Part shown: positions 97 to 8,916 of the stretch, in pieces
Layout of the letters: each line of letters opens with the position of its first letter
Position numbering within the stretch: the first letter of the stretch is position 1
IMG/VR virus record: IMGVR_UViG_2698536505_000015
Reading direction: 5' to 3' (one strand)
Length of the DNA: 8,994 nt
From: a virus
Taxonomy: Duplodnaviria > Heunggongvirae > Uroviricota > Caudoviricetes
Translations under genes and position numbers: made by a program
The notes under the pieces: generated by a model
Databases searched by the model: none
Told to the model about the DNA's origin: nothing
Seen by the model: the letters and a program-made list of their open reading frames with translations, nothing else

Positions 97-924
97 CTAT
101 TGCTGGGTAAGATCAACCTGATGGTGAATGCGTTTATGGCTGGCACCCATCAGTGAGATTTTTACGCACGACGGCGCATACATGACGGAGTAAAAACTTT
201 TAACGTAGGTTCCGGAATCCAGATACAGCTCGGTCATTCCGCCGCTGTTTTTCTGCGTCTGTTTCTGCCCTAACTGGACAGCACCGATCGTCATAAACAA
301 TTCACCACAGCGACCGAGATTCGTGTACGTATTCACATCCTCGTTAATGCGCCCCATGAATGAGAACGGTCGATCAACCGAACAGATAAAGCTGTTCATT
401 GCCTTGCGTTTCACCCACGAAGCATGGCCGCCATTGTCACCAAGAAAATCCCCGCCCTGCGACATAGCGATGGAAAGAGCAGGTATTGATTCGTAGTACG
501 CCAGCATTTCAGAAAGGATCGCATCCAGTTTCCTTATCGGAAAATAGGCCTGGTCATAGTTGCGATCCACCCGAAACTGGAACTCGTGATAATCATCATC
601 GAGCTGAATGAAGTATTTACACCCGACCAGTTTTGCCAGGTCGAAACAGGCATTACGGGCGTAAAAAATTGAGCGGCGGTCACAGAAATTATCGGCTTCG
701 TCAAAACGACTGGCGATATCGGCTTTGGAAAACACCAGCACCTGTTCACCAAATTCAGCCATGTACTGATTTCGTGTCTTATCTTCATCATCAACAACGA
801 TAAAAATTTTCCCGGTATAGCCAGCACGACGCAACGTCCGGTAAGTCAGAACTTTGTCCGGTCGCCCGTGAGTCAGAATAAAGGCGCAAAAATCATCACG
901 CATATTCCTCCTCCTCACCACCAT
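97..924 (-). CDS. Hypothetical phage protein (Rac ydaY-position); weak GT-A-like pattern (N-terminal beta-strand, IVVDDED and LDDD acidic motifs); function unknown
   Basis: 275-codon ORF; alternative start at 903 (Met8) has a GGAGG-type SD formed by the GAG GAG GAG codons at the 3' end of the upstream gene; overlaps the upstream ParB-like gene by 8-29 nt, suggesting translational coupling. Motifs read directly from the translation; fold assignment is inference. Confidence 0.6.
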   Translation of the reverse strand: MVVRRRNMRDDFCAFILTHGRPDKVLTYRTLRRAGYTGKIFIVVDDEDKTRNQYMAEFGEQVLVFSKADIASRFDEADNFCDRRSIFYARNACFDLAKLVGCKYFIQLDDDYHEFQFRVDRNYDQAYFPIRKLDAILSEMLAYYESIPALSIAMSQGGDFLGDNGGHASWVKRKAMNSFICSVDRPFSFMGRINEDVNTYTNLGRCGELFMTIGAVQLGQKQTQKNSGGMTELYLDSGTYVKSFYSVMYAPSCVKISLMGASHKRIHHQVDLTQQ

Positions 925-1687
925 GCATGATCTCCACCATGCGCTGCGTCATCCGGACAAATCCATTTTCAATAGCCTGCTGATAATCAATGATCACCAG
1001 CGCCGACTCCTCGAAAAAACACTGAATTTCAGAGGGGGCGTGAGCGTAATAGTCCGCAATTCTGCTGAAATTAAACACCGTGTGACGTTCTGCCGCACAC
1101 AGGAGGAATTTCTCAATATCAGGCTCAAGGGACGCCGAACGTATCCGGCTGATCAGCTCCTGAGTTTTCGTATCGTCGTACAGTTCACTGATATCCGGTT
1201 TACCGCCCGACGGCTCATAAACAGGCGTATCAATTTTCGTCGTATACGGCTCCTCCTCATTTCCTGTACCGGGCAAAACATCCGTCAACAGTTCATCAAT
1301 TTCTGTCGGGATGAAGCCTGTCAGGGAGACATCAAAATCAGCATTGATTAGGTCCGACAGCTCCATCCGCAACAGATCTTCATCCCAGCCAGCATTCATC
1401 GGCAGGCGATTATCTGCCAGGCGGTACGCCTTTTTCTGCTCATCCGTCAGGCCAGACAGAACAATGACCGGAACAGAATCCATTTTGAGCATTTCAGCCG
1501 CCATAACACGACCGTGACCCGCAATAATTTCGCCCTTTTCGTCAATCAGCACCGGATTAGTCCAGCCGAATTGCTTAATACTTTCTACCAGTTGTGCCAC
1601 CTGCTCAGGGCTGTGCGTCCTGGCGTTGTGCGCATACGGTGACAATTCTTGTAATGGGCGATAGACTATCTTTAATTTCTCGCTCAT
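896..1687 (-). CDS. ynaK: ParB-like nuclease-domain (ParB N-terminal domain) protein with uncharacterized C-terminal half and acidic tail; full-length counterpart of Rac YnaK
   Basis: 263-aa ORF; N-terminal ~100 aa (..PLQELSPYAHNARTHSPEQVAQLVESIKQFGWTNPVLIDEKGEIIAGHGRVMAA..) matches the ParB/Srx-fold pattern and, from memory, the N-terminus of E. coli K-12 YnaK; lies next to trkG as in Rac. Confidence 0.75.
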   Translation of the reverse strand: MSEKLKIVYRPLQELSPYAHNARTHSPEQVAQLVESIKQFGWTNPVLIDEKGEIIAGHGRVMAAEMLKMDSVPVIVLSGLTDEQKKAYRLADNRLPMNAGWDEDLLRMELSDLINADFDVSLTGFIPTEIDELLTDVLPGTGNEEEPYTTKIDTPVYEPSGGKPDISELYDDTKTQELISRIRSASLEPDIEKFLLCAAERHTVFNFSRIADYYAHAPSEIQCFFEESALVIIDYQQAIENGFVRMTQRMVEIMHGGEEEEYA

Positions 1688-1824: not shown

Positions 1825-3282
1825 TTAGGAGCGCCAAAAAAAACCTGAAAACAATATAATAACAGGATAAATTTCAAGGCGACCAAGAATCATAGCTATG
1901 CACATTAAACATTTTGCAATGTCATTAAGCACTCCGAATGACGATGCAGTAGCCCCAAAACCTAATCCCATATTATTAATACATGCAGCCACTGTTGCAA
2001 ATGATGTAAGAAAATCATATCCCATACCATTTAACACCAGTATAAAAAACACCGTGAAGAGAGTATAAAGAAAAAAGAAACTCCATACAGACCTCATTAC
2101 ACGATCTGTAACTATCTTCCCTCCTACATTTACACTCAACAACGCTCTGGGATGAGAAAGCTGATTTATCTCGTGTTTGCTTTGTTTGAAAAGTATAAGA
2201 AATCGAAGTGACTTAATTCCACCACAAGTTGAACCTATACATCCCCCAAAGAAACTTGACAACAGCAAAAACACTATCGTGTGCGTGGGCCAACTTGCAT
2301 AATCCTGCGTAGCTAAACCATTATCAGTGAGCATGGAGCTGGCAAGAAAAAACGAATGAATAAAACTTCCATGCAAGTCATACATACCTATATGCCAGAC
2401 CTGGAAAGAGGTAACAATGATCACCCCTAAGGCTATTAACAGAAAGAAACGAAGTTCAATATCTCTGATTAAAGGTTTTATCGTTTTCCTGCTAATAACA
2501 ATATACCAAAGAGTGAAGTTGAAAGCCGATAGCAGGGAAAAAGAACCAGCCACCAGCTCAACCAAATAGTTATTAAAATATCCGATACTCTCGCTATGAG
2601 TTGAGAAACCACCAAGCGAAACTGTGGAAATCCCGTGACAAATAGCATCAAACAAAGGCATTCCTGCAAGTCTATAACAGACAATACAAGCAATACCTAA
2701 TAAAGAATAAGTTATCCACAGTGTCCGTGACGTATCGGCCAGGCGGGGAGTGAGTTTGTCATCCTTAAATGGCCCCGGCATTTCTGACTGATAAAGCTTT
2801 GCACCACCAATACCCAATAATGGCAATACAGCAACCGCCAGAACAATAACTCCTAAACCACCTATAAAATTTAACTGTGACCGATAGTACAAATATGCCC
2901 GAGGTAATGAACTAACATCATCAATTACAGTTGCTCCTGTTGTTGTTATTCCAGAAACCCCTTCAAACAGAGCATCAATGAACGTTAAATTAAGTTCTGA
3001 GTCAATCCATAAAGGGAATGCACTAATAACAGAAAACAAAATCCAAAACATTACAATTATAATAAACCCATCACGGGTACGTAATTGAATGCCAGATTTC
3101 TTAGTTGTATACCACGCTCCGCCACCAATGCAAAAAAATATAACGAAAGTTATAAAGAAAACGAACAGGATTTTTTCTTTATAAAACAATGCTACAACCA
3201 TTGGTGGCAACATTGAAAGACTATAGAGCCAAACCAGGAACCCACACATATGAGTAACAACTCTTACATGAGATGTATTCAT
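1825..3282 (-). CDS. trkG: TrkH/TrkG-family potassium uptake membrane protein (Rac-type trkG moron)
   Basis: Polytopic membrane protein, 485 aa from the ATG at 3282 (the ORF-track start at 3300 is a TTG extension); repeated pore-loop-like glycine motifs (SGITTTGATV, GGFSTHSESIGY, GGCIGSTCGGIK); strong resemblance to E. coli TrkG/TrkH from memory; gene and upstream region visibly more AT-rich than flanking phage genes. Confidence 0.9.
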   Translation of the reverse strand: MNTSHVRVVTHMCGFLVWLYSLSMLPPMVVALFYKEKILFVFFITFVIFFCIGGGAWYTTKKSGIQLRTRDGFIIIVMFWILFSVISAFPLWIDSELNLTFIDALFEGVSGITTTGATVIDDVSSLPRAYLYYRSQLNFIGGLGVIVLAVAVLPLLGIGGAKLYQSEMPGPFKDDKLTPRLADTSRTLWITYSLLGIACIVCYRLAGMPLFDAICHGISTVSLGGFSTHSESIGYFNNYLVELVAGSFSLLSAFNFTLWYIVISRKTIKPLIRDIELRFFLLIALGVIIVTSFQVWHIGMYDLHGSFIHSFFLASSMLTDNGLATQDYASWPTHTIVFLLLSSFFGGCIGSTCGGIKSLRFLILFKQSKHEINQLSHPRALLSVNVGGKIVTDRVMRSVWSFFFLYTLFTVFFILVLNGMGYDFLTSFATVAACINNMGLGFGATASSFGVLNDIAKCLMCIAMILGRLEIYPVIILFSGFFWRS

Positions 3283-3419
3283 ATCTAAATATTCTTTCAA
3301 TTATAACCACCTTGCTGCAATATTATGATTATACTGTATAAAATTTAACTCCTCTTAGATCTTACTTCACTGTTCCTTATGAAACAATCATCAAAATGAA
3401 TCATATTGTAGTTAAGATT

Positions 3420-3884: not shown

Positions 3885-4378
3885 TGCTGACCCCACAAAC
3901 AGATTTCACGCTCAATCTCACGACGAGTCATGAGACCTTTCCATTGCTTACCGCCAGCATATGTCCAGCGACGTAGCTGATCACATGCGCCTTTGATATC
4001 GCCCTGGTTTATTTTGCGAAGAAGCGTCGATGTTCTGAAATTGCCAGCACCCACGTTGTAAACGAATGAGTAAAGAGCGCCGCGCGTTGTTTCCGGTATA
4101 TCGACTTTGATGTACGGGTTAATTTGTCTGGCGACCGTGGCAAGGTCTTTATTCAGGAGGGCTTTGCATTCTGCTTTGGTATACGTTTTACCGAGCATGA
4201 TGTCTTTTCCTGTATGCCCGTGACATACAGTCCATACACCAACAATATCTTTGTATGGTATGTAGCTGACACCTTCCAGACCATCGTTACCACTTGGGCC
4301 AGTGATTAACACTGATGCTATAGCAATTGCTCCGCCACCAATAGCAGCAGCAACGACTTTTCGTAATGATGGAGGCAT
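3881..4378 (-). CDS. R: SAR endolysin (phage-21 R-type lysozyme with N-terminal signal-anchor-release domain)
   Basis: N-terminal Gly/Ala-rich weakly hydrophobic segment ([20 protein letters not shown]) followed by a T4-lysozyme-like Glu...Asp...Thr region ([16 protein letters not shown]); start overlaps the holin stop (TAATG). Confidence 0.9.
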
Positions 4379-4593
4379 TATTCACCTCTCGCAGCCTTGC
4401 GCTTATCTTCTTTAATCTTGAAATAAAGGTTTGTCAGGTACGTCAGCAGGCCAAATACCAGACTACCCAGCACACCGATTGCAGCCCACTGTGACGGAGT
4501 TACTCTATCGAGCAACTGTAAAAACCAGTAGCCAGCACTGCCTGCGGAGGTGCCGTAGGCAATGCCTGTTGAAATTTTGTCCATGGATTTCAT
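4378..4593 (-). CDS. S: Class II holin / pinholin (phage-21 S-type) with dual-start motif
   Basis: Two TM segments; begins MKSMDK (Met1 and Met4 dual start, antiholin/holin); strong SD GGAGGTGA upstream of the ATG at 4593; matches S21/EssD from memory. The ORF-track extension to 4650 lacks an RBS and is not supported. Confidence 0.85.
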
Positions 4594-4691
4594 AGCCTCA
4601 CCTCCGCACGGAACGGATGGCATAGTTATTATGTGTAGGCTTTCAGACACATCAATCAGAGCCTTAATTGATATATATGCTGGAGACGATG

Positions 4692-4719
4692 CAATATAAA
4701 AAGCTCGCCGTAGCGAGCT
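4692..4719 (-). terminator. Rho-independent terminator ending the lipoprotein moron (minus-strand sense)
   Basis: Perfect 7-bp inverted repeat agctcgc (4702-4708) / gcgagct (4713-4719), 4-nt loop, followed on the minus strand by UUUUAUAUU (complement of 4692-4701). Confidence 0.5.
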
Positions 4720-4844
4720 AATAAAATGTATTTCTCTGATATTATGTTTATTTGTATTAGCTCAGACTTGACATCACAGGTTTCGTATATAGAACATCAT
4801 CAAATCTGTCAGTTTGCTATGAATGAGATATAGTAATTGAAGAG

Positions 4845-5240
4845 CTAACCTCGCATGTCAAAGCCAGATTTCTGAAAATCTCTGTAGACTTCCGGATTGT
4901 TGAAGGCCGGAAATTTGGCTTTATGAGCTGCGGACTTTATCGCTTCGCAATAGGCTTTATCACCGTTACTGGTAGATATTTTTAACGCCGTGCCATCCTG
5001 AGAGAATTCCATATGCAACCTGCATTTTTTCCCTTTCCAGTTATGCGGCTCATCAAGTTTGGCATTAATTGCAGCTCTGATTCCCCGCGCTTGCGCCCCC
5101 CATTCATCCTGATCATCCCAGCGTCCTGAACTGCAACTACCTGTAGCAGTAGTTTTGTGGCAATCTGAAGGGTGTAAAGGTGTGCATCCCGCAACAAAAC
5201 CGACCCAAAAAGTCAACATAACGATTTTCTTTAATCCCAC
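4845..5240 (-). CDS. Lipoprotein with TolA C-terminal domain (domain III)-like mature region, paralog 2
   Basis: GTG start with GAGGAG SD 7 nt upstream; signal peptide with lipobox FVAGC; mature part shares GK.C.L...DG.L.I...GD..C.A...AA..AK.P....VY..F pattern, including a Cys pair, with paralog 1 and with E. coli TolA domain III as recalled. Confidence 0.7.
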   Translation of the reverse strand: MGLKKIVMLTFWVGFVAGCTPLHPSDCHKTTATGSCSSGRWDDQDEWGAQARGIRAAINAKLDEPHNWKGKKCRLHMEFSQDGTALKISTSNGDKAYCEAIKSAAHKAKFPAFNNPEVYRDFQKSGFDMRG

Positions 5241-5390
5241 TTCTTGCTCCTCAATCCATTAAAATCTCAGCAATAGTAGTTGTTACGTCCGCCACTGGCT
5301 CAGAGCTGACTATCCGCTAAATTTAGCTCAGTGCCGTAGCTGTGTCAGAACAAACCTAAGCCGAAACCGTTTATTACAAAACAATAAATA

Positions 5391-5819
5391 TCAGGGTTTA
5401 AAATCCAGCACCCCATTTTGAAATACTTTATATACTTCCGGCGAAGGGGGGGCAGGTATATCAGCATTCTTTATCGCATTCATCGCTTCACGACATAAAT
5501 CGAGGTCTCCACTTTCTCTTTTAACCTCCAGTAGAAGGCCATTCGGGGCCATATGCATTCTCAGTGTACACTCTTTTCCTGAATACTTACTCGCATCCCC
5601 GAACTGTTTTTCGATGGCGCTCTTGATTTGATGGGCATACAGACGGATATCCTCACTAACATCAGAAGTACGTTCAGATGAACTCACATACTGTGTCTCT
5701 ATTGCTTTATCGGAGTAATATGATGTACGGTCATGATAATTTGTCGATACAGCATCAGTGCACCCGATAATAATCCCACTAATAATCAACGTAAGAATTG
5801 ATGCGCTACGAAAACCCAT
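5391..5819 (-). CDS. Lipoprotein with TolA C-terminal domain (domain III)-like mature region, paralog 1
   Basis: ATG with GAGGA SD; signal peptide with lipobox IIGC; C-terminal 85 aa (YAHQIKSAIEKQFGDASKYSGKECTLRMHMAPNGLLLEVKRESGDLDLCREAMNAIKNADIPAPPSPEVYKVFQNGVLDFKP) aligns closely with the C-terminus of E. coli TolA as recalled. Confidence 0.8.
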   Translation of the reverse strand: MGFRSASILTLIISGIIIGCTDAVSTNYHDRTSYYSDKAIETQYVSSSERTSDVSEDIRLYAHQIKSAIEKQFGDASKYSGKECTLRMHMAPNGLLLEVKRESGDLDLCREAMNAIKNADIPAPPSPEVYKVFQNGVLDFKP

Positions 5820-5848
5820 TTTTCCTCACATATGTCATATAGTAAAGG

Positions 5849-5878
5849 ATTATATATACCGTTGTTTTGGACGCTCAA
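5849..5878 (-). promoter_or_regulatory. Candidate sigma70 promoter for the lipoprotein moron
   Basis: Minus-strand -35 TTGAGC (5873-5878), 18-bp spacer, -10 TATAAT (5849-5854), about 30 nt upstream of the ATG at 5819. Consensus matching by eye only. Confidence 0.3.
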
Positions 5879-6407
5879 ACAGCGAATCAGATCAAATAAA
5901 ACGCACATTTGTTAACATTTACACAAAGTCTGCGTGGGATATTCTGAAAGAATATCCATAATGTGGAGAGAATCTATTGAAGTGCATGGTGCCGGGTGCC
6001 TCCCGGTGAACAAAATGTTCGTGATACCTGTCGGCGACAGAAAAGGTTAATGGTATCACCCCACCGCACAGGGGGATTCACCATGCAGGAGTTTTCTTAG
6101 CAAACTCACTGCGCGCCCGGCAACTCCCAACCACATAAAATGCGGAGTTTGTGGTATTTATGCATATAACTCGCAGGAATTATCTTAAAAAACTGATGTC
6201 GATCCGGATTAAAAAGAAGCAGGTCATCATCAGATGACTGGAAAAAAGGAAAACAAAAAATACTCATCATACAGTTTTGATTGCAGGGATGAGCCTGCTA
6301 TGCACAATATGCAGAATATAAGCAAGATAAAAATATGCAGGCATATTATTTCGGATTTTGTTATTAACACAACCTTTTTAATAATCATTTGGCATACAAT
6401 AAACCAG

Positions 6408-6436
6408 CCCAAAAAGAACCGCCTAAACAGGCGGTT
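6408..6436 (-). terminator. Rho-independent terminator (minus-strand sense) in the late leader region
   Basis: Inverted repeat aaccgcc (6417-6423) / ggcggtt (6430-6436) with 6-nt loop, followed on the minus strand by CUUUUU (complement of 6411-6416). Confidence 0.45.
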
Positions 6437-6680
6437 GGTCAATACAAAGGATGCTTCGTCTTTATTATAGTAATCTGAGGCGTCGGGTGTCTTGTATCAG
6501 ACAACATATTGTCCCGCTAAACAGCGAATTACAAACCACCCTGCAATGATCTCTCATCTCATTTTATATGAGTTGACGACATCAGGATAACGCATCATCA
6601 GCCCCTGCCAAGAAATATCAAAACTCCCGCCAGCAATGTGTTATCACAATATTGTAAAAAAAACACAGCACCGAAACTAT

Positions 6681-6719
6681 AACTGGTCTCTGTTATAATT
6701 TGGAGCAGAAAGACCAGTT
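6681..6719. repeat. Perfect 9-bp inverted repeat AACTGGTCT ... AGACCAGTT separated by 21 bp, bracketing an extended -10 element
   Basis: Arms at 6681-6689 and 6711-6719 read directly; the spacer contains TGTTATAAT. Confidence 0.5.
6691..6699 (+). promoter_or_regulatory. Candidate extended -10 promoter (TGnTATAAT) on the plus strand, directed toward the bidirectional terminator
   Basis: TGTTATAAT at 6691-6699; no good -35; a transcript from here would end at the terminator at 6757-6783 (about 75-85 nt). Confidence 0.3.
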
Positions 6720-6756
6720 GCCCAACTAGCAGCATTCTCCCCTGCTTTCCTGACGT

Positions 6757-6783
6757 AAAAAAACCGCATTAAGCGGTTTTTTT
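6757..6783. terminator. Bidirectional rho-independent terminator (candidate tR'-like late terminator in minus sense)
   Basis: aaaaaaaCCGCattaaGCGGttttttt: GC stem flanked by an A7 tract upstream and a T7 tract downstream, so a stem plus U-tract forms in both orientations. Confidence 0.6.
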
Positions 6784-6838
6784 ACGATGTCCATGTCTGC
6801 AATCCGCCTCGCGATACAGCTTTGCGAAGCATAGCAAA

Positions 6839-6867
6839 ATTGAAGCAGTTTATACGTAAGAAATCAA
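6839..6867 (-). promoter_or_regulatory. Candidate late promoter (pR'-like) directly downstream of the Q-position gene
   Basis: Minus-strand -35 TTGATT (6862-6867, overlapping the Q stop codon), 17-bp spacer, -10 TTCAAT (6839-6844); placement analogous to lambda pR' after Q; predicted short transcript ends at the 6757-6783 terminator. Confidence 0.3.
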
Positions 6868-7406
6868 GCCATTTTCTCAGCAAATGATTCACGCATGGGA
6901 ATATATAGGGCATACTCAGCAACAGCTAACCAATTAGCAATCCGTTTTTCGCATGTGCTAAAACACCACTCTGGGTGTGCATCATTTAGCAATTCAGCCA
7001 TTTTGCGCTTAGTCATCCCCCGCCCTTCATAGCGTTGCCGGAGAATGCAAATCAATCCTGGATGCTCTGCCAGCACCTCACTTATGACTCGATCAATACA
7101 TAACGCCTCTGCATCAGTACAATGCGCCAGCCAGCTCTTTTGCTTGCCGTTGATCATCTCTCGCAAAAACGCTTCCAGCTCAGCTTTCTCTATTCCCGCT
7201 TTTTTCATTCTGCGCAGGGCTTCATTAATGGCTGTTTTCGTCAGTTTTTTGGATGCCAACAACTGATTGAACATATTCCCTGACCTGCCACCGCCAATAT
7301 ACGACCAGCGCCCCCACATACGTAGTTTTCCCTGAATCCAGACACTTTCCAGCGTGGTGAGGCGAAGGTGTTCTCCGCTTTTTCCTGTATTCGTTGGGTA
7401 AATCAT
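6864..7406 (-). CDS. Putative late-gene antiterminator (Q-position protein)
   Basis: 180-aa ORF immediately upstream of the candidate late promoter/terminator and lysis genes; start overlaps the stop of the upstream gene (ATGA). Family assignment rests mainly on position. Confidence 0.5.
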   Translation of the reverse strand: MIYPTNTGKSGEHLRLTTLESVWIQGKLRMWGRWSYIGGGRSGNMFNQLLASKKLTKTAINEALRRMKKAGIEKAELEAFLREMINGKQKSWLAHCTDAEALCIDRVISEVLAEHPGLICILRQRYEGRGMTKRKMAELLNDAHPEWCFSTCEKRIANWLAVAEYALYIPMRESFAEKMA

Positions 7407-7693
7407 AAATGACCTTTCTTTCTCCAGATTTCTTGTGTGCGAAAAACCCCTTCAGCATGCATCAGGCGCAATTCTTCTTTGGTGTAATCGCTGGTTTTTA
7501 CCCGCCCGTCGATTAGATCGTGGCATGAGCTACAGGCTATCGCCGCCTGCATATCGTGTGGTTTTGTCGCTGTTCCGCACGTCCCCGCCAGCCTGTAATG
7601 CGCCAGCACAGAGGTTTCGGGATTGTGATTGCAGTAGCCAGGGATTCTGATCTGGCACATCTGGCCTTTAGCCGCTTTACGTAAATTCACCAT
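7403..7693 (-). CDS. ybcO: YbcO-like DUF1364 zinc-binding protein (putative nuclease of lambdoid nin regions)
   Basis: 96 aa; four-Cys pattern (CQIRIPGYC ... CSSCHD); N-terminal MVNLRKAAKGQMCQIRIPGYCNHNPETSVLAH matches E. coli DLP12 YbcO as recalled; start overlaps the upstream stop (TAATG). Confidence 0.7.
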   Translation of the reverse strand: MVNLRKAAKGQMCQIRIPGYCNHNPETSVLAHYRLAGTCGTATKPHDMQAAIACSSCHDLIDGRVKTSDYTKEELRLMHAEGVFRTQEIWRKKGHL

Positions 7694-8292
7694 TACGCAA
7701 ACTCCAGTAGTTGTGCGGCCACATTTTCAACTTCCTCCTGAGAGGAGAATTTACGGAACAGAATCCAGTTCCACAGCACATTCAGTACAGATTTATAAAC
7801 CTGCTGAAACTCGACTTCGTCCACATTCGCAAAAGCGATGGATTTTGCCCGACGCCCACGGCTACCGTCCGGATAAATATGCTCGGTGTAAAATCCGGCC
7901 TGAATGGTTACCCACTCGCGGAAAGCCTCAAACGACTTTAGCAACGCCGTATCCCGGGTTCTACGAGTCGCAACGGTGTTAAGGTATTGCTCTGCGGCAT
8001 CACTCAGGGCTGGCGTGTGTTCCCGACCAACTGATTCGCACAGGTAATCAACGAAACCAGACAGCAGTTCTCGTTCGCGAGGCGTGATCGCCCCACCGAC
8101 CGGAGTCCAGTAATCGAATCCCAGTTGCAGGAGTTTGAAAAAACGCTTGTGGAATGCGTAGTTACGCACACGCTTAAAGTCTGCGTGTATCCACTCACCT
8201 ATTTTGATTTGATGCAGAAAATCGCAACTCTCCGGCGTCGCCGGGAGAAGTAAACCAGAAGAAGTTTGTTTGACCAGTTGTATATGCGCCAT
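7693..8292 (-). CDS. DUF1367-like nin-region phage protein (YbcN-position)
   Basis: 199-aa ORF, first of three translationally coupled genes; family assignment from memory of lambdoid nin-region proteins, not verified. Confidence 0.5.
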   Translation of the reverse strand: MAHIQLVKQTSSGLLLPATPESCDFLHQIKIGEWIHADFKRVRNYAFHKRFFKLLQLGFDYWTPVGGAITPRERELLSGFVDYLCESVGREHTPALSDAAEQYLNTVATRRTRDTALLKSFEAFREWVTIQAGFYTEHIYPDGSRGRRAKSIAFANVDEVEFQQVYKSVLNVLWNWILFRKFSSQEEVENVAAQLLEFA

Positions 8293-8350
8293 TTCTCAAT
8301 CTCTCGATGGCGCAGTGCAGCAGATGCCAGTTGTTCAGGCTGACGTATAA

Positions 8351-8378
8351 AGTATAAATAAACTGGTTCCAGTGTAAA
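8351..8378 (-). promoter_or_regulatory. Candidate sigma70 promoter upstream of the DUF1367-DUF1364-Q gene trio
   Basis: Minus-strand -35 TTTACA (8373-8378), 16-bp spacer, -10 TATACT (8351-8356), about 55 nt upstream of the ATG at 8292. Confidence 0.3.
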
Positions 8379-8565
8379 GCCCCCACCTTAATGGAATAAA
8401 AACCAAACAACAGATTGCTGGGATACAAACAACGCTTATTATTAAAAGCGGTTAAACAAATTAAATTTTAATGTTATGCAAATTTGTCAGATCACCATAA
8501 TATCTCATTTGAAAACCGCTGAAATAACAATCCTATCAGGATTAATCATATTAAGGTGAGTAAAT

Positions 8566-8652
8566 ATGGAAAACAACAAATCTGCACATTACGCTCCTTT
8601 TTTATCTGTAATACTTTTTGTTTTTTGCTGTGTATGGGCATTATTTTTATAA
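8566..8652 (+). CDS. Small hydrophobic protein, 28 aa (MENNKSAHYAPFLSVILFVFCCVWALFL); candidate small membrane protein or type-I-toxin-like peptide
   Basis: ATG preceded by AAGGTGAG Shine-Dalgarno at 6-nt spacing; short polar N-terminus followed by a single predicted TM helix; the only plus-strand ORF with a strong RBS; below the length cutoff of the supplied ORF track. Confidence 0.35.
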   Translation: MENNKSAHYAPFLSVILFVFCCVWALFL

Positions 8653-8729
8653 AAATATTCACAGATAAAATAAACTCGCCGAATCAGGTTAAGTGTGGGT
8701 GCGTTGAGGATGCCTGACACATCAGAGGC

Positions 8730-8751
8730 GGCGAGGGATTTCTCCCTCGCC
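8730..8751 (-). other. GC-rich hairpin 10 nt after the hok stop codon (3' UTR stem-loop)
   Basis: Perfect 9-bp inverted repeat ggcgaggga (8730-8738) / tccctcgcc (8743-8751) with 4-nt loop; no U-tract follows on either strand, so it looks like an RNA stability or folding element rather than a canonical terminator. Confidence 0.4.
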
Positions 8752-8760
8752 TAGTCACTC

Positions 8761-8916
8761 TTACTCCTCAGGTTCGTAAGCTGTGAAGACAGCGACCTCC
8801 GTCTGACCGGTTCGGATTCGCACCTCGCAGAGGTCTTTCCTCGTTACCAGTGCCGTCACTATGACGGTTAAACAGATGACAATCAGTGCGACTAACATCG
8901 CCTTTTGCTGCTTCAT
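8761..8916 (-). CDS. hok: Hok/Gef-family type I toxin (HokD/RelF-like)
   Basis: Hand translation gives MKQQKAMLVALIVICLTVIVTALVTRKDLCEVRIRTGQTEVAVFTAYEPEE (51 aa), the Hok/Gef pattern with TM helix and conserved C..C; AGGAGAA SD upstream; below the ORF-track cutoff. Confidence 0.85.
   Translation of the reverse strand: MKQQKAMLVALIVICLTVIVTALVTRKDLCEVRIRTGQTEVAVFTAYEPEE

Follow-up and report, generated by a model that had tools for sequence, protein, structure and literature searches.

Two stand-alone TolA domain III lipoproteins in the Q-to-holin cargo slot of a lambdoid prophage: possible decoys for Tol-dependent import

Introduction

Why would a lambdoid prophage carry, just ahead of its lysis genes, two copies of the docking domain of a host envelope protein? 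The question is raised by IMG/VR virus record IMGVR_UViG_2698536505_000015 (Caudoviricetes), an 8,994-nucleotide (nt) stretch of DNA which, taken whole, we call the window, and within it by a unit on the minus strand at 4692–5878 that holds two genes, referred to here as gene A (5391–5819) and gene B (4845–5240). The domain concerned is domain III of TolA (TolA-III), the most thoroughly studied gateway through which group A colicins and Ff, If1 and CTX-type phages enter the cell. A preliminary description had proposed that the unit is a cargo insertion encoding lipoproteins with a TolA-III-like module. We report that A and B are, by sequence comparison and structure prediction, two stand-alone copies of TolA domain III made as lipoproteins, and we consider, tentatively, that they might act as decoys for import through the Tol system.

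Results

Genes A and B match TolA domain III in sequence profile and predicted fold

The preliminary description had suggested a profile search against TolA C-terminal models and a comparison of AlphaFold models with TolA-III structures, and both analyses agreed with it. Pfam PF06519, the TolA C-terminal family, matched gene A with an E-value of 2.4e-23 (82.6 bits) and gene B with an E-value of 1.3e-14 (54.6 bits), the cut-off being 25. When the solved E. coli TolA-III chains were compared with the two proteins by phmmer, residues 55–142 of A (E 5e-28) and 50–129 of B (E 5e-9) were aligned. The alignment of A 55–142 with E. coli TolA 334–421 is gapless, with ~60% identity over 88 residues, and gene B shares about 31–32% identity with E. 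coli TolA-III. A Cys pair (C363/C388 in TolA, C84/C109 in A, C73/C98 in B) is invariant in 23 family members, the disulfide itself being predicted; the residue-by-residue homology, Cys pair included, was thus recovered by Pfam and phmmer as described. AlphaFold2 modelled the TolA-III domains of both proteins with a predicted local distance difference test score (pLDDT) of ~90; residues 1–50 of A and 1–39 of B scored below 50, and a low-confidence segment of 30–33 residues lies ahead of the domain in each. In Foldseek, the gene A model matched 2X9A_B, from the IF1 g3p–TolA complex 2X9A, with a target template modelling (TM) score of 0.96 and a root-mean-square deviation (rmsd) of 0.6 Å, and the gene B model matched 3QDP with a target TM of 0.92 and an rmsd of 1.1 Å. 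With the E. coli TolA-III structures (1S62, 3QDP, 1TOL, 2X9A) A and B therefore share the three-stranded α/β fold, the Pfam family and the Cys pair, and in gene A the β3 strand is identical as well.

A and B belong to the TolA C-terminal domain family and yet are not TolA. The full-length TolA models of NCBIfam (TIGR02794 and NF007065) match them only at model positions 265–362 and 293–386, and an NF007065 score of 107.8 falls below the full-length TolA threshold of 213. Compared with E. coli TolA, both lack domain I, the inner-membrane anchor that engages TolQ and TolR, their N-termini being lipoprotein signal peptides, and both lack the long Ala/Lys-rich helical domain II, for which proteins of 142 and 131 residues offer only the short low-confidence segment ahead of the domain. 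They lie outside the tol-pal operon, between a Q-like gene and a holin gene and not in a tolQRA-tolB-pal cluster, and their N-terminal lipid anchor is predicted to sit in the outer, not the inner, membrane. Lacking the domains that couple TolA to TolQR, they would therefore transduce no force. Both proteins also match the profile of PHROG 5772, a family of no known function (E 1.6e-62 and 6.7e-65).

Both open reading frames (ORFs) are present on the minus strand where the preliminary description had placed them, with the strong ribosome-binding sites it had noted. Gene A, an intact ORF for a 142-residue prolipoprotein, starts with ATG 6 nt after a GAGG Shine–Dalgarno (SD) sequence; gene B, encoding a prolipoprotein of 131 residues, starts with GTG at 5240, 6 nt after the SD sequence GAGGAG. 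In each signal peptide a basic n-region and a hydrophobic core are followed by a lipobox that fits [LVI][ASTVI][GAS]C and is found in all homologues. The lipobox is IIGC with Cys20 in A and VAGC with Cys19 in B, and Thr occupies +2 in both, consistent with the earlier reading of lipobox signal peptides without Asp at this position. Lipidation and an outer-membrane location are accordingly predicted for both proteins, from the lipobox and from the Lol +2 rule (no Asp at +2). After the signal peptide, gene A has a ~33-residue tether and a TolA-III domain at 54–142 that ends in LDFKP; in gene B the lipobox is followed by a conserved Cys-x8-Cys linker (20–45) and a TolA-III domain (46–131) that ends in FDMRG.

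Both genes are annotated otherwise in RefSeq. In NZ_CP033250.1, the Prokaryotic Genome Annotation Pipeline (PGAP) labels gene A as a tolA pseudogene, incomplete and missing its N-terminus (9792–10052 in the examined stretch), and places the start of gene B at an internal ATG, so that its signal peptide is cut short. The pseudogene label is a misannotation that arises because domain III by itself brings the TIGR02794 score to 75.6, over the cut-off of 59.45. The PGAP start of gene B is inferior to the GTG at 5240, which restores the Lys-Lys n-region of all homologues.

Ligand-binding surfaces

TolB, colicin N and the N1 domain of g3p dock on the β3 strand of TolA (L417–P421) by backbone β-strand augmentation, and D418P or K420P in TolA abolishes all three interactions (PMC4339652; PMC7391070). 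The affinity of TolA-III is ~1 µM for colicin N and ~40 µM for TolB (PMC4339652). Colicin A binds the opposite edge of TolA (L375–P380), with cation–π contacts to K368, K379 and K396 (PMC3365938). The established partner within the Tol-Pal system is the TolB N-terminus, and whether TolA-III contacts Pal directly is disputed (PMC7391070); of the Pal and TolB binding that the preliminary description ascribed to the domain, the TolB part stands and the direct Pal contact is in dispute.

At β3, gene A has LDFKP, identical to TolA, and gene B has FDMRG, a conservative variant. Along the colicin A edge, gene A reads LLEVKR, with H, K and K at the positions of K368, K379 and K396; gene B reads ALKIST and has E, S and H there, so that all three lysines are lost. 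Gene A, judged by these residues, is a close mimic of both ligand faces. Gene B probably has a ligand range that differs from that of gene A.

Relationship of gene A to gene B and selection on both

A and B had been described as two paralogous tandem genes. They are homologous (29% identity, E 2e-18), and a recent tandem duplication is ruled out by this identity and by the closer relationship of each to other lineages. The nearest full-length relative of gene A is E. coli TolA-III itself (60%), and its own family is narrow, with members of 65–100% identity in E. coli and Shigella only. The clade of gene B is separate, older and broad, with relatives at 78–89% identity from Citrobacter, Enterobacter, Serratia, Klebsiella and Raoultella, and it resides on both plasmids and chromosomes in many Enterobacterales.

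Homologues of gene B were found on ~600 plasmids. On I-complex conjugative plasmids (IncI1/B/O, IncK/Z) a homologue of ~88% amino acid identity follows nikB by 68 nt on the same strand (6001–6432, minus strand, in two examined stretches), and on a pO157-type IncF plasmid a homologue lies near toxB (5001–5432, minus strand, in the examined stretch). In Enterobacter the homologue is a lone chromosomal gene among metabolic genes, in non-phage surroundings. The lone homologue of Serratia sits between nrdDG and a gene pair encoding GmrSD_N and HEPN (6001–8736 in the examined stretch), a neighbourhood that is defence-island-like.

Measured against the homologues from plasmids, Enterobacter and Serratia, the ratio of nonsynonymous to synonymous substitution (dN/dS, ω) of gene B was 0.11, 0.08 and 0.08, respectively (range 0.08–0.15). 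The linker of gene B, CxPLHPSxCHKTTATGSC followed by RWDDQDEWG (5163–5240 region), begins directly after the lipidated Cys and is modelled by AlphaFold with low confidence; with an ω of 0.016 it is more constrained than the domain. For gene A against its variant, dN/dS was 0.36 overall and 0.25 in the domain. By these values both genes are under purifying selection.

Predicted transcription unit of genes A and B

The preliminary description had given the unit its own promoter and terminator. The candidate sigma-70 promoter (5849–5878, minus strand) was recovered by a consensus scan as TTGAGC-18-TATAAT, read from 5878 to 5849 with 10 of 12 consensus matches, although such patterns are common in the region: the 2.7 kb scanned held 11 promoter-like matches versus 6.9 ± 2.3 in shuffles. 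The pattern is identical in phage mEp460_ev081 and absent upstream of 66%-identical variants of gene A, and conservation is thus unusable as support for it. More convincing is the intrinsic terminator (4692–4719, minus strand) that lies after gene B and ahead of the holin gene. A 7-bp GC-rich stem at 4702–4719 is followed by TTTTTAT, and the hairpin (4719–4702) with its T-run has a predicted stability of −13 kcal/mol (z −4.1), a value equalled by none of 200 shuffles, which bears out the earlier call. Because a scan revealed no terminator-like site between A and B, the two genes probably form one transcription unit.

Directly upstream of the module lies an STnc100-family prophage small RNA (sRNA) gene (5930–6116, minus strand; Rfam RF02076, 86.6 bits against a gathering threshold of 47, E 5e-18), a feature that the preliminary description had not noticed; members of this family are known to mark the cargo regions of prophages (bioRxiv 10.64898/2026.05.13.724894). 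The Q-like gene is followed, ~370 nt downstream, by a second promoter-like site, AAGACA-18-TATAAT (6493–6464, minus strand), and ~30 nt beyond this site comes a hairpin (6436–6417) with a T-run, of unremarkable stability (z −1.7). These two signals may represent the late promoter and first terminator. The unit had been placed between a late promoter region and the holin gene: its position between Q and holin was confirmed, and the late promoter could be given no confident location.

Distribution and mosaic behaviour in prophages

The A–B unit occupies the Q-to-S cargo slot, as had been proposed. Its upstream border is a DUF1133 protein gene (6864–7406, minus strand; DUF1133 E 2.5e-107) that probably encodes a Q-type late antiterminator, with a borderline Phage_antitermQ match (26.1 bits, cut-off 26), and on its downstream side is the first gene of the lysis cassette, a P21-type holin (4378–4650, minus strand; PF04971, E 4.5e-35; named essD in RefSeq). 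The GC content of the unit is 0.39–0.45 versus 0.47–0.51 in the flanking lysis and Q-region genes, a modest difference. Two traits expected of a moron were found: presence at the site varies among relatives, and GC differs from that of the flanks.

A 1.4-kb stretch around A–B is 100% identical in many E. coli chromosomes, and the module was detected in 774 of 5426 complete E. coli genomes at a coverage of at least 80% (~14%). Each of 80 IMG/VR prophage loci had gene B, the terminator region and the holin gene, 79 of them had gene A as well, and the flanks were of at least two backbone types. Among 50,697 GenBank phage records, a homologue was found in one only, mEp460_ev081. This phage shares just 4377–6010 with the window, at 99% identity, comprising the holin gene, terminator, B, A and part of the sRNA; the homology ends inside the sRNA gene, near 6010, and the Q gene and endolysin of mEp460_ev081 differ from those of the window. 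The 66%-identical variants of gene A occur alone, without gene B, in other lambdoid prophages, in the order lambda-type Q, tRNAs, gene A variant, nanS-p, DUF1378, DUF826, holin. This position is the stx slot of Stx phages, and the DNA upstream of the variants is unrelated to that of the window.

The wider class of short TolA-III lipoproteins

When 1.84 billion cluster representatives were searched exhaustively with a profile, 579 relatives emerged. Among the best 149 of these, 78 are 100–175 residues long, and at least 53 of the 78 carry a lipobox when judged by a crude rule; short TolA-III proteins with predicted lipid anchors form dozens of distinct clusters. The TolA-III core and β3 are equally conserved in 57 short lipoproteins and 51 full-length TolAs, and D418 is retained in 72% of the former versus 35% of the latter.

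Plasmids also encode such proteins: tblastn of gene A retrieved 722 plasmid records, mainly from Klebsiella. A 10–12 kb ColRNAI plasmid lineage (K. pneumoniae NZ_CP033403.1) carries a cloacin/colicin-E3-type bacteriocin with its immunity and lysis genes and, ~1.2 kb away on the other strand, a gene for a 123-residue TolA-III lipoprotein (lipobox LLTAC, C-terminus LDFRP). The stop codon of this gene overlaps the start of a gene for a 121-residue Sec-secreted TonB C-terminal domain protein, in a translationally coupled arrangement (pair at 8137–8870, minus strand, in the examined stretch). By its predicted products, this plasmid pairs two import-energising docking heads, TolA-III and the TonB C-terminal domain. 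Klebsiella IncFIB plasmids encode a solitary 144-residue lipoprotein version.

Other features of the window

All genes of the window are on the minus strand and constitute the late region of a Rac-like lambdoid E. coli prophage. They run in the order hok, DUF1367, YbcO, the DUF1133/Q-like gene, ~1 kb of AT-rich non-coding DNA, gene A, gene B and the P21-type holin gene, and then lysozyme, Rz and Rz1, trkG, a ParB-like gene and a gene for a TAGT-family glycosyltransferase. The lysis cassette thus already carries spanins (Rz/Rz1) for outer-membrane disruption. A tRNA scan of the window found no tRNA. trkG (TrkH family; 1825–3300, minus strand), a known cargo gene of Rac, has a GC content of ~0.32, far under that of the surrounding prophage. 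The gene for the TET-associated glycosyltransferase family protein (97–924, minus strand; PF20691, E 1e-34) overlaps the end of that for a ParB_N-domain, ynaK-like protein (896–1687, minus strand), and the two may be a DNA-modification pair in this Rac-like prophage.

Discussion

What could free TolA-III heads do for a prophage? Our preferred reading, with slightly less than an even chance, is that A and B are outer-membrane-tethered decoys that block Tol-dependent import. Thr at +2 would route the lipidated proteins to the inner leaflet of the outer membrane, and the TolA-III head, on a tether of ~30 residues, would hang where the colicin translocation and g3p N1 domains first emerge, beside TolB–Pal. 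The head of gene A would be expected to bind the same ligands as TolA, because the β3 sequence LDFKP is kept exactly. Binding to a head that is unlinked from the TolQR motor would be a dead end, and heads so detached would therefore be competitive decoys, conferring tolerance to Tol-dependent bacteriocins and resistance to filamentous phages. A modest level of decoy might be sufficient to block import, with Tol-Pal function mostly spared, because the invaders bind TolA-III far more tightly than TolB does (colicin N at ~1 µM, TolB at ~40 µM). If expression in the late phase became very high, A and B would in addition titrate TolB, and the outer membrane would be loosened.

Laboratory work offers a precedent. 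In 1993, Levengood-Freyermuth, Click and Webster reportedly observed that exporting TolA-III to the periplasm of E. coli confers tolerance to the colicins E1, E2, E3 and A together with leakiness, and Howard et al. are said to have shown in 2001 that a periplasmic TonB C-terminal domain inhibits TonB-dependent uptake. The laboratory TolA-III of the 1993 study is likewise a free head reported to compete with native TolA, which is the mode of action proposed here; however, that construct was artificial, soluble and overexpressed, whereas the family of A and B consists of natural phage, plasmid and chromosome genes whose products are predicted to be lipid-anchored and which have diverged under selection. 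The genomic context makes import blocking more plausible, since some relatives reside on conjugative plasmids that encode pili and another on a bacteriocin plasmid, next to a gene for a TonB C-terminal domain. I-complex pili are receptors for the filamentous phage If1; the presence of gene B homologues on I-pilus plasmids fits import blocking because If1 depends on TolA. A pO157-type F plasmid carries a homologue too, and among the lone chromosomal copies one is adjacent to a GmrSD/HEPN defence locus. Also in favour are the retention of β3 and D418 in the short lipoproteins, the purifying selection on both genes, and the signs of an autonomous unit (promoter pattern, strong terminator and GC content). 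By extension, and more speculatively, Enterobacterales mobile elements may widely carry docking-head decoys, in the form of lipid-anchored TolA-III, with a secreted TonB C-terminal domain added on at least one bacteriocin plasmid. Such heads would intercept whole classes of bacteriocins, and filamentous phages, just below the outer membrane, and the broad protection so gained would not depend on immunity proteins.

Several observations weigh against the decoy reading. Gene B has diverged on the colicin A face, where all three lysines are lost, and partly at β3 (FDMRG). The promoter pattern ahead of gene A is, by itself, weak evidence, because such matches are common in the region, and the gene A variants of the stx slot, which lie behind tRNAs and lack this promoter, suggest late, Q-dependent expression and not expression in the lysogen. 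The A–B module is always linked to the holin gene, which also fits a role in lysis. The sorting of A and B to the outer membrane follows from the +2 rule and is a prediction. Neither protein matched any PADLOC-DB 2.0 defence model at E-values up to 1. Finally, the 379 Klebsiella plasmids on which TolA-III is paired with TonB_C are one lineage at 99% identity or more and were counted as one observation.

The main rival explanation, which we regard as rather unlikely, is that A and B antagonise Tol-Pal. TolA-III heads made in bulk under late, Q-dependent control would capture the TolB N-terminus, TolA could not strip TolB from Pal, and the outer membrane would become leaky and blebbing, a tol-like phenotype, so that lysis would be sped up or completed and, on bacteriocin plasmids, the release of toxin would be aided. 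Such a role would suit genes that lie directly upstream of a holin-endolysin-spanin cassette and are always linked to it, the stx-slot variants with no recognisable promoter of their own, the exact retention of the TolB-binding strand in gene A, the homologue on a plasmid with a colicin lysis gene, and the leakage of periplasmic enzymes that periplasmic TolA-III reportedly caused in the 1993 study. Yet a strong terminator separates the A–B unit from the holin gene, spanins of the cassette already disrupt the outer membrane, and the weak affinity of TolA for TolB (~40 µM) would demand very high levels. Close homologues of gene B, moreover, are lone, non-mobile chromosomal genes under strong purifying selection, where a constitutive tol phenotype would be costly, and the TonB C-terminal partner has no obvious role in leakiness. 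Import blocking and Tol-Pal antagonism are compatible, and dose could decide which effect dominates.

Another envelope role is improbable, be it as an accessory of conjugation or entry exclusion, as a Bor- or Lom-like factor of host interaction or serum resistance, or as a binder of a periplasmic ligand via the Cys-loop linker of gene B. That linker is more conserved than the domain (ω 0.016), one homologue, 68 nt beyond nikB on the same strand, apparently closes the nikAB relaxase operon, and a pO157-type plasmid has a copy close to toxB. Against this, scans of A and B with Pfam, NCBIfam, PHROG and PADLOC revealed no homology to known exclusion or virulence lipoproteins, TolA-III is the sole recognisable module and its ligand-binding edge strand is conserved, and no partner gene is common to the phage, plasmid and chromosomal contexts. 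That gene A is debris, a 3′ fragment of tolA picked up by a phage, is very improbable, and we rejected the pseudogene reading. PGAP does flag it as an incomplete tolA, and the module is near-identical across hundreds of genomes, so that conservation there tells little. But the PGAP call is explained by TIGR02794 passing its cut-off on domain III alone, and the ORF is intact: it is preceded by an SD sequence, opens with a start codon and encodes a canonical signal peptide of a lipoprotein, which tolA lacks. Variants of 65–91% identity keep the architecture, with a dN/dS of 0.25 in the domain, and a large family of similar short lipoproteins exists.

If A and B do block Tol-dependent import, known systems offer partial parallels. 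T5 Llp, the Cor proteins of phi80, N15 and mEp167, and TraT are likewise small lipoproteins of mobile elements that protect their carrier, at the envelope stage, against incoming phages, colicins or DNA. They have no sequence similarity to A or B, and they bind and inactivate a host receptor, whereas A and B would imitate a co-receptor and bind the invader. The superinfection immunity and colicin tolerance conferred by filamentous-phage g3p use the same interface, between g3p N1 and TolA-III, and likewise shut Tol import, but as a mirror image: there a phage ligand saturates host TolA, and here a TolA copy would saturate the ligand. Lambdoid Q-to-S cargo such as stx, nanS-p, nmpC, cspB/F and bor occupies the same slot as A–B and differs in product and presumed function. 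Full-text literature searches found no description of a function for stand-alone TolA-III lipoproteins, in agreement with the preliminary description, which was aware of none for phage proteins of this kind. A hint in PMC11125564 of a ciprofloxacin-induced 'TolA' of CP-933O was dropped, the gene being listed there as a tail-fibre protein.

This gene class is common, being found in 14% of complete E. coli genomes and on I-complex, pO157-type and Klebsiella plasmids, and it is annotated only generically, with gene A flagged as a pseudogene in RefSeq. Should the proteins act as decoys, they would represent a new principle of envelope-level defence, mimicry of a host co-receptor and not masking of a receptor, which about one complete E. 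coli genome in seven would carry. Co-receptor mimicry would then join the exclusion mechanisms of mobile elements, and the natural variants would help to dissect the TolA-III surface used by each invader. Natural decoys, if they exist, would explain part of the strain-to-strain variation in sensitivity to colicins and filamentous phages and would be relevant for bacteriocin- and phage-based therapeutics.

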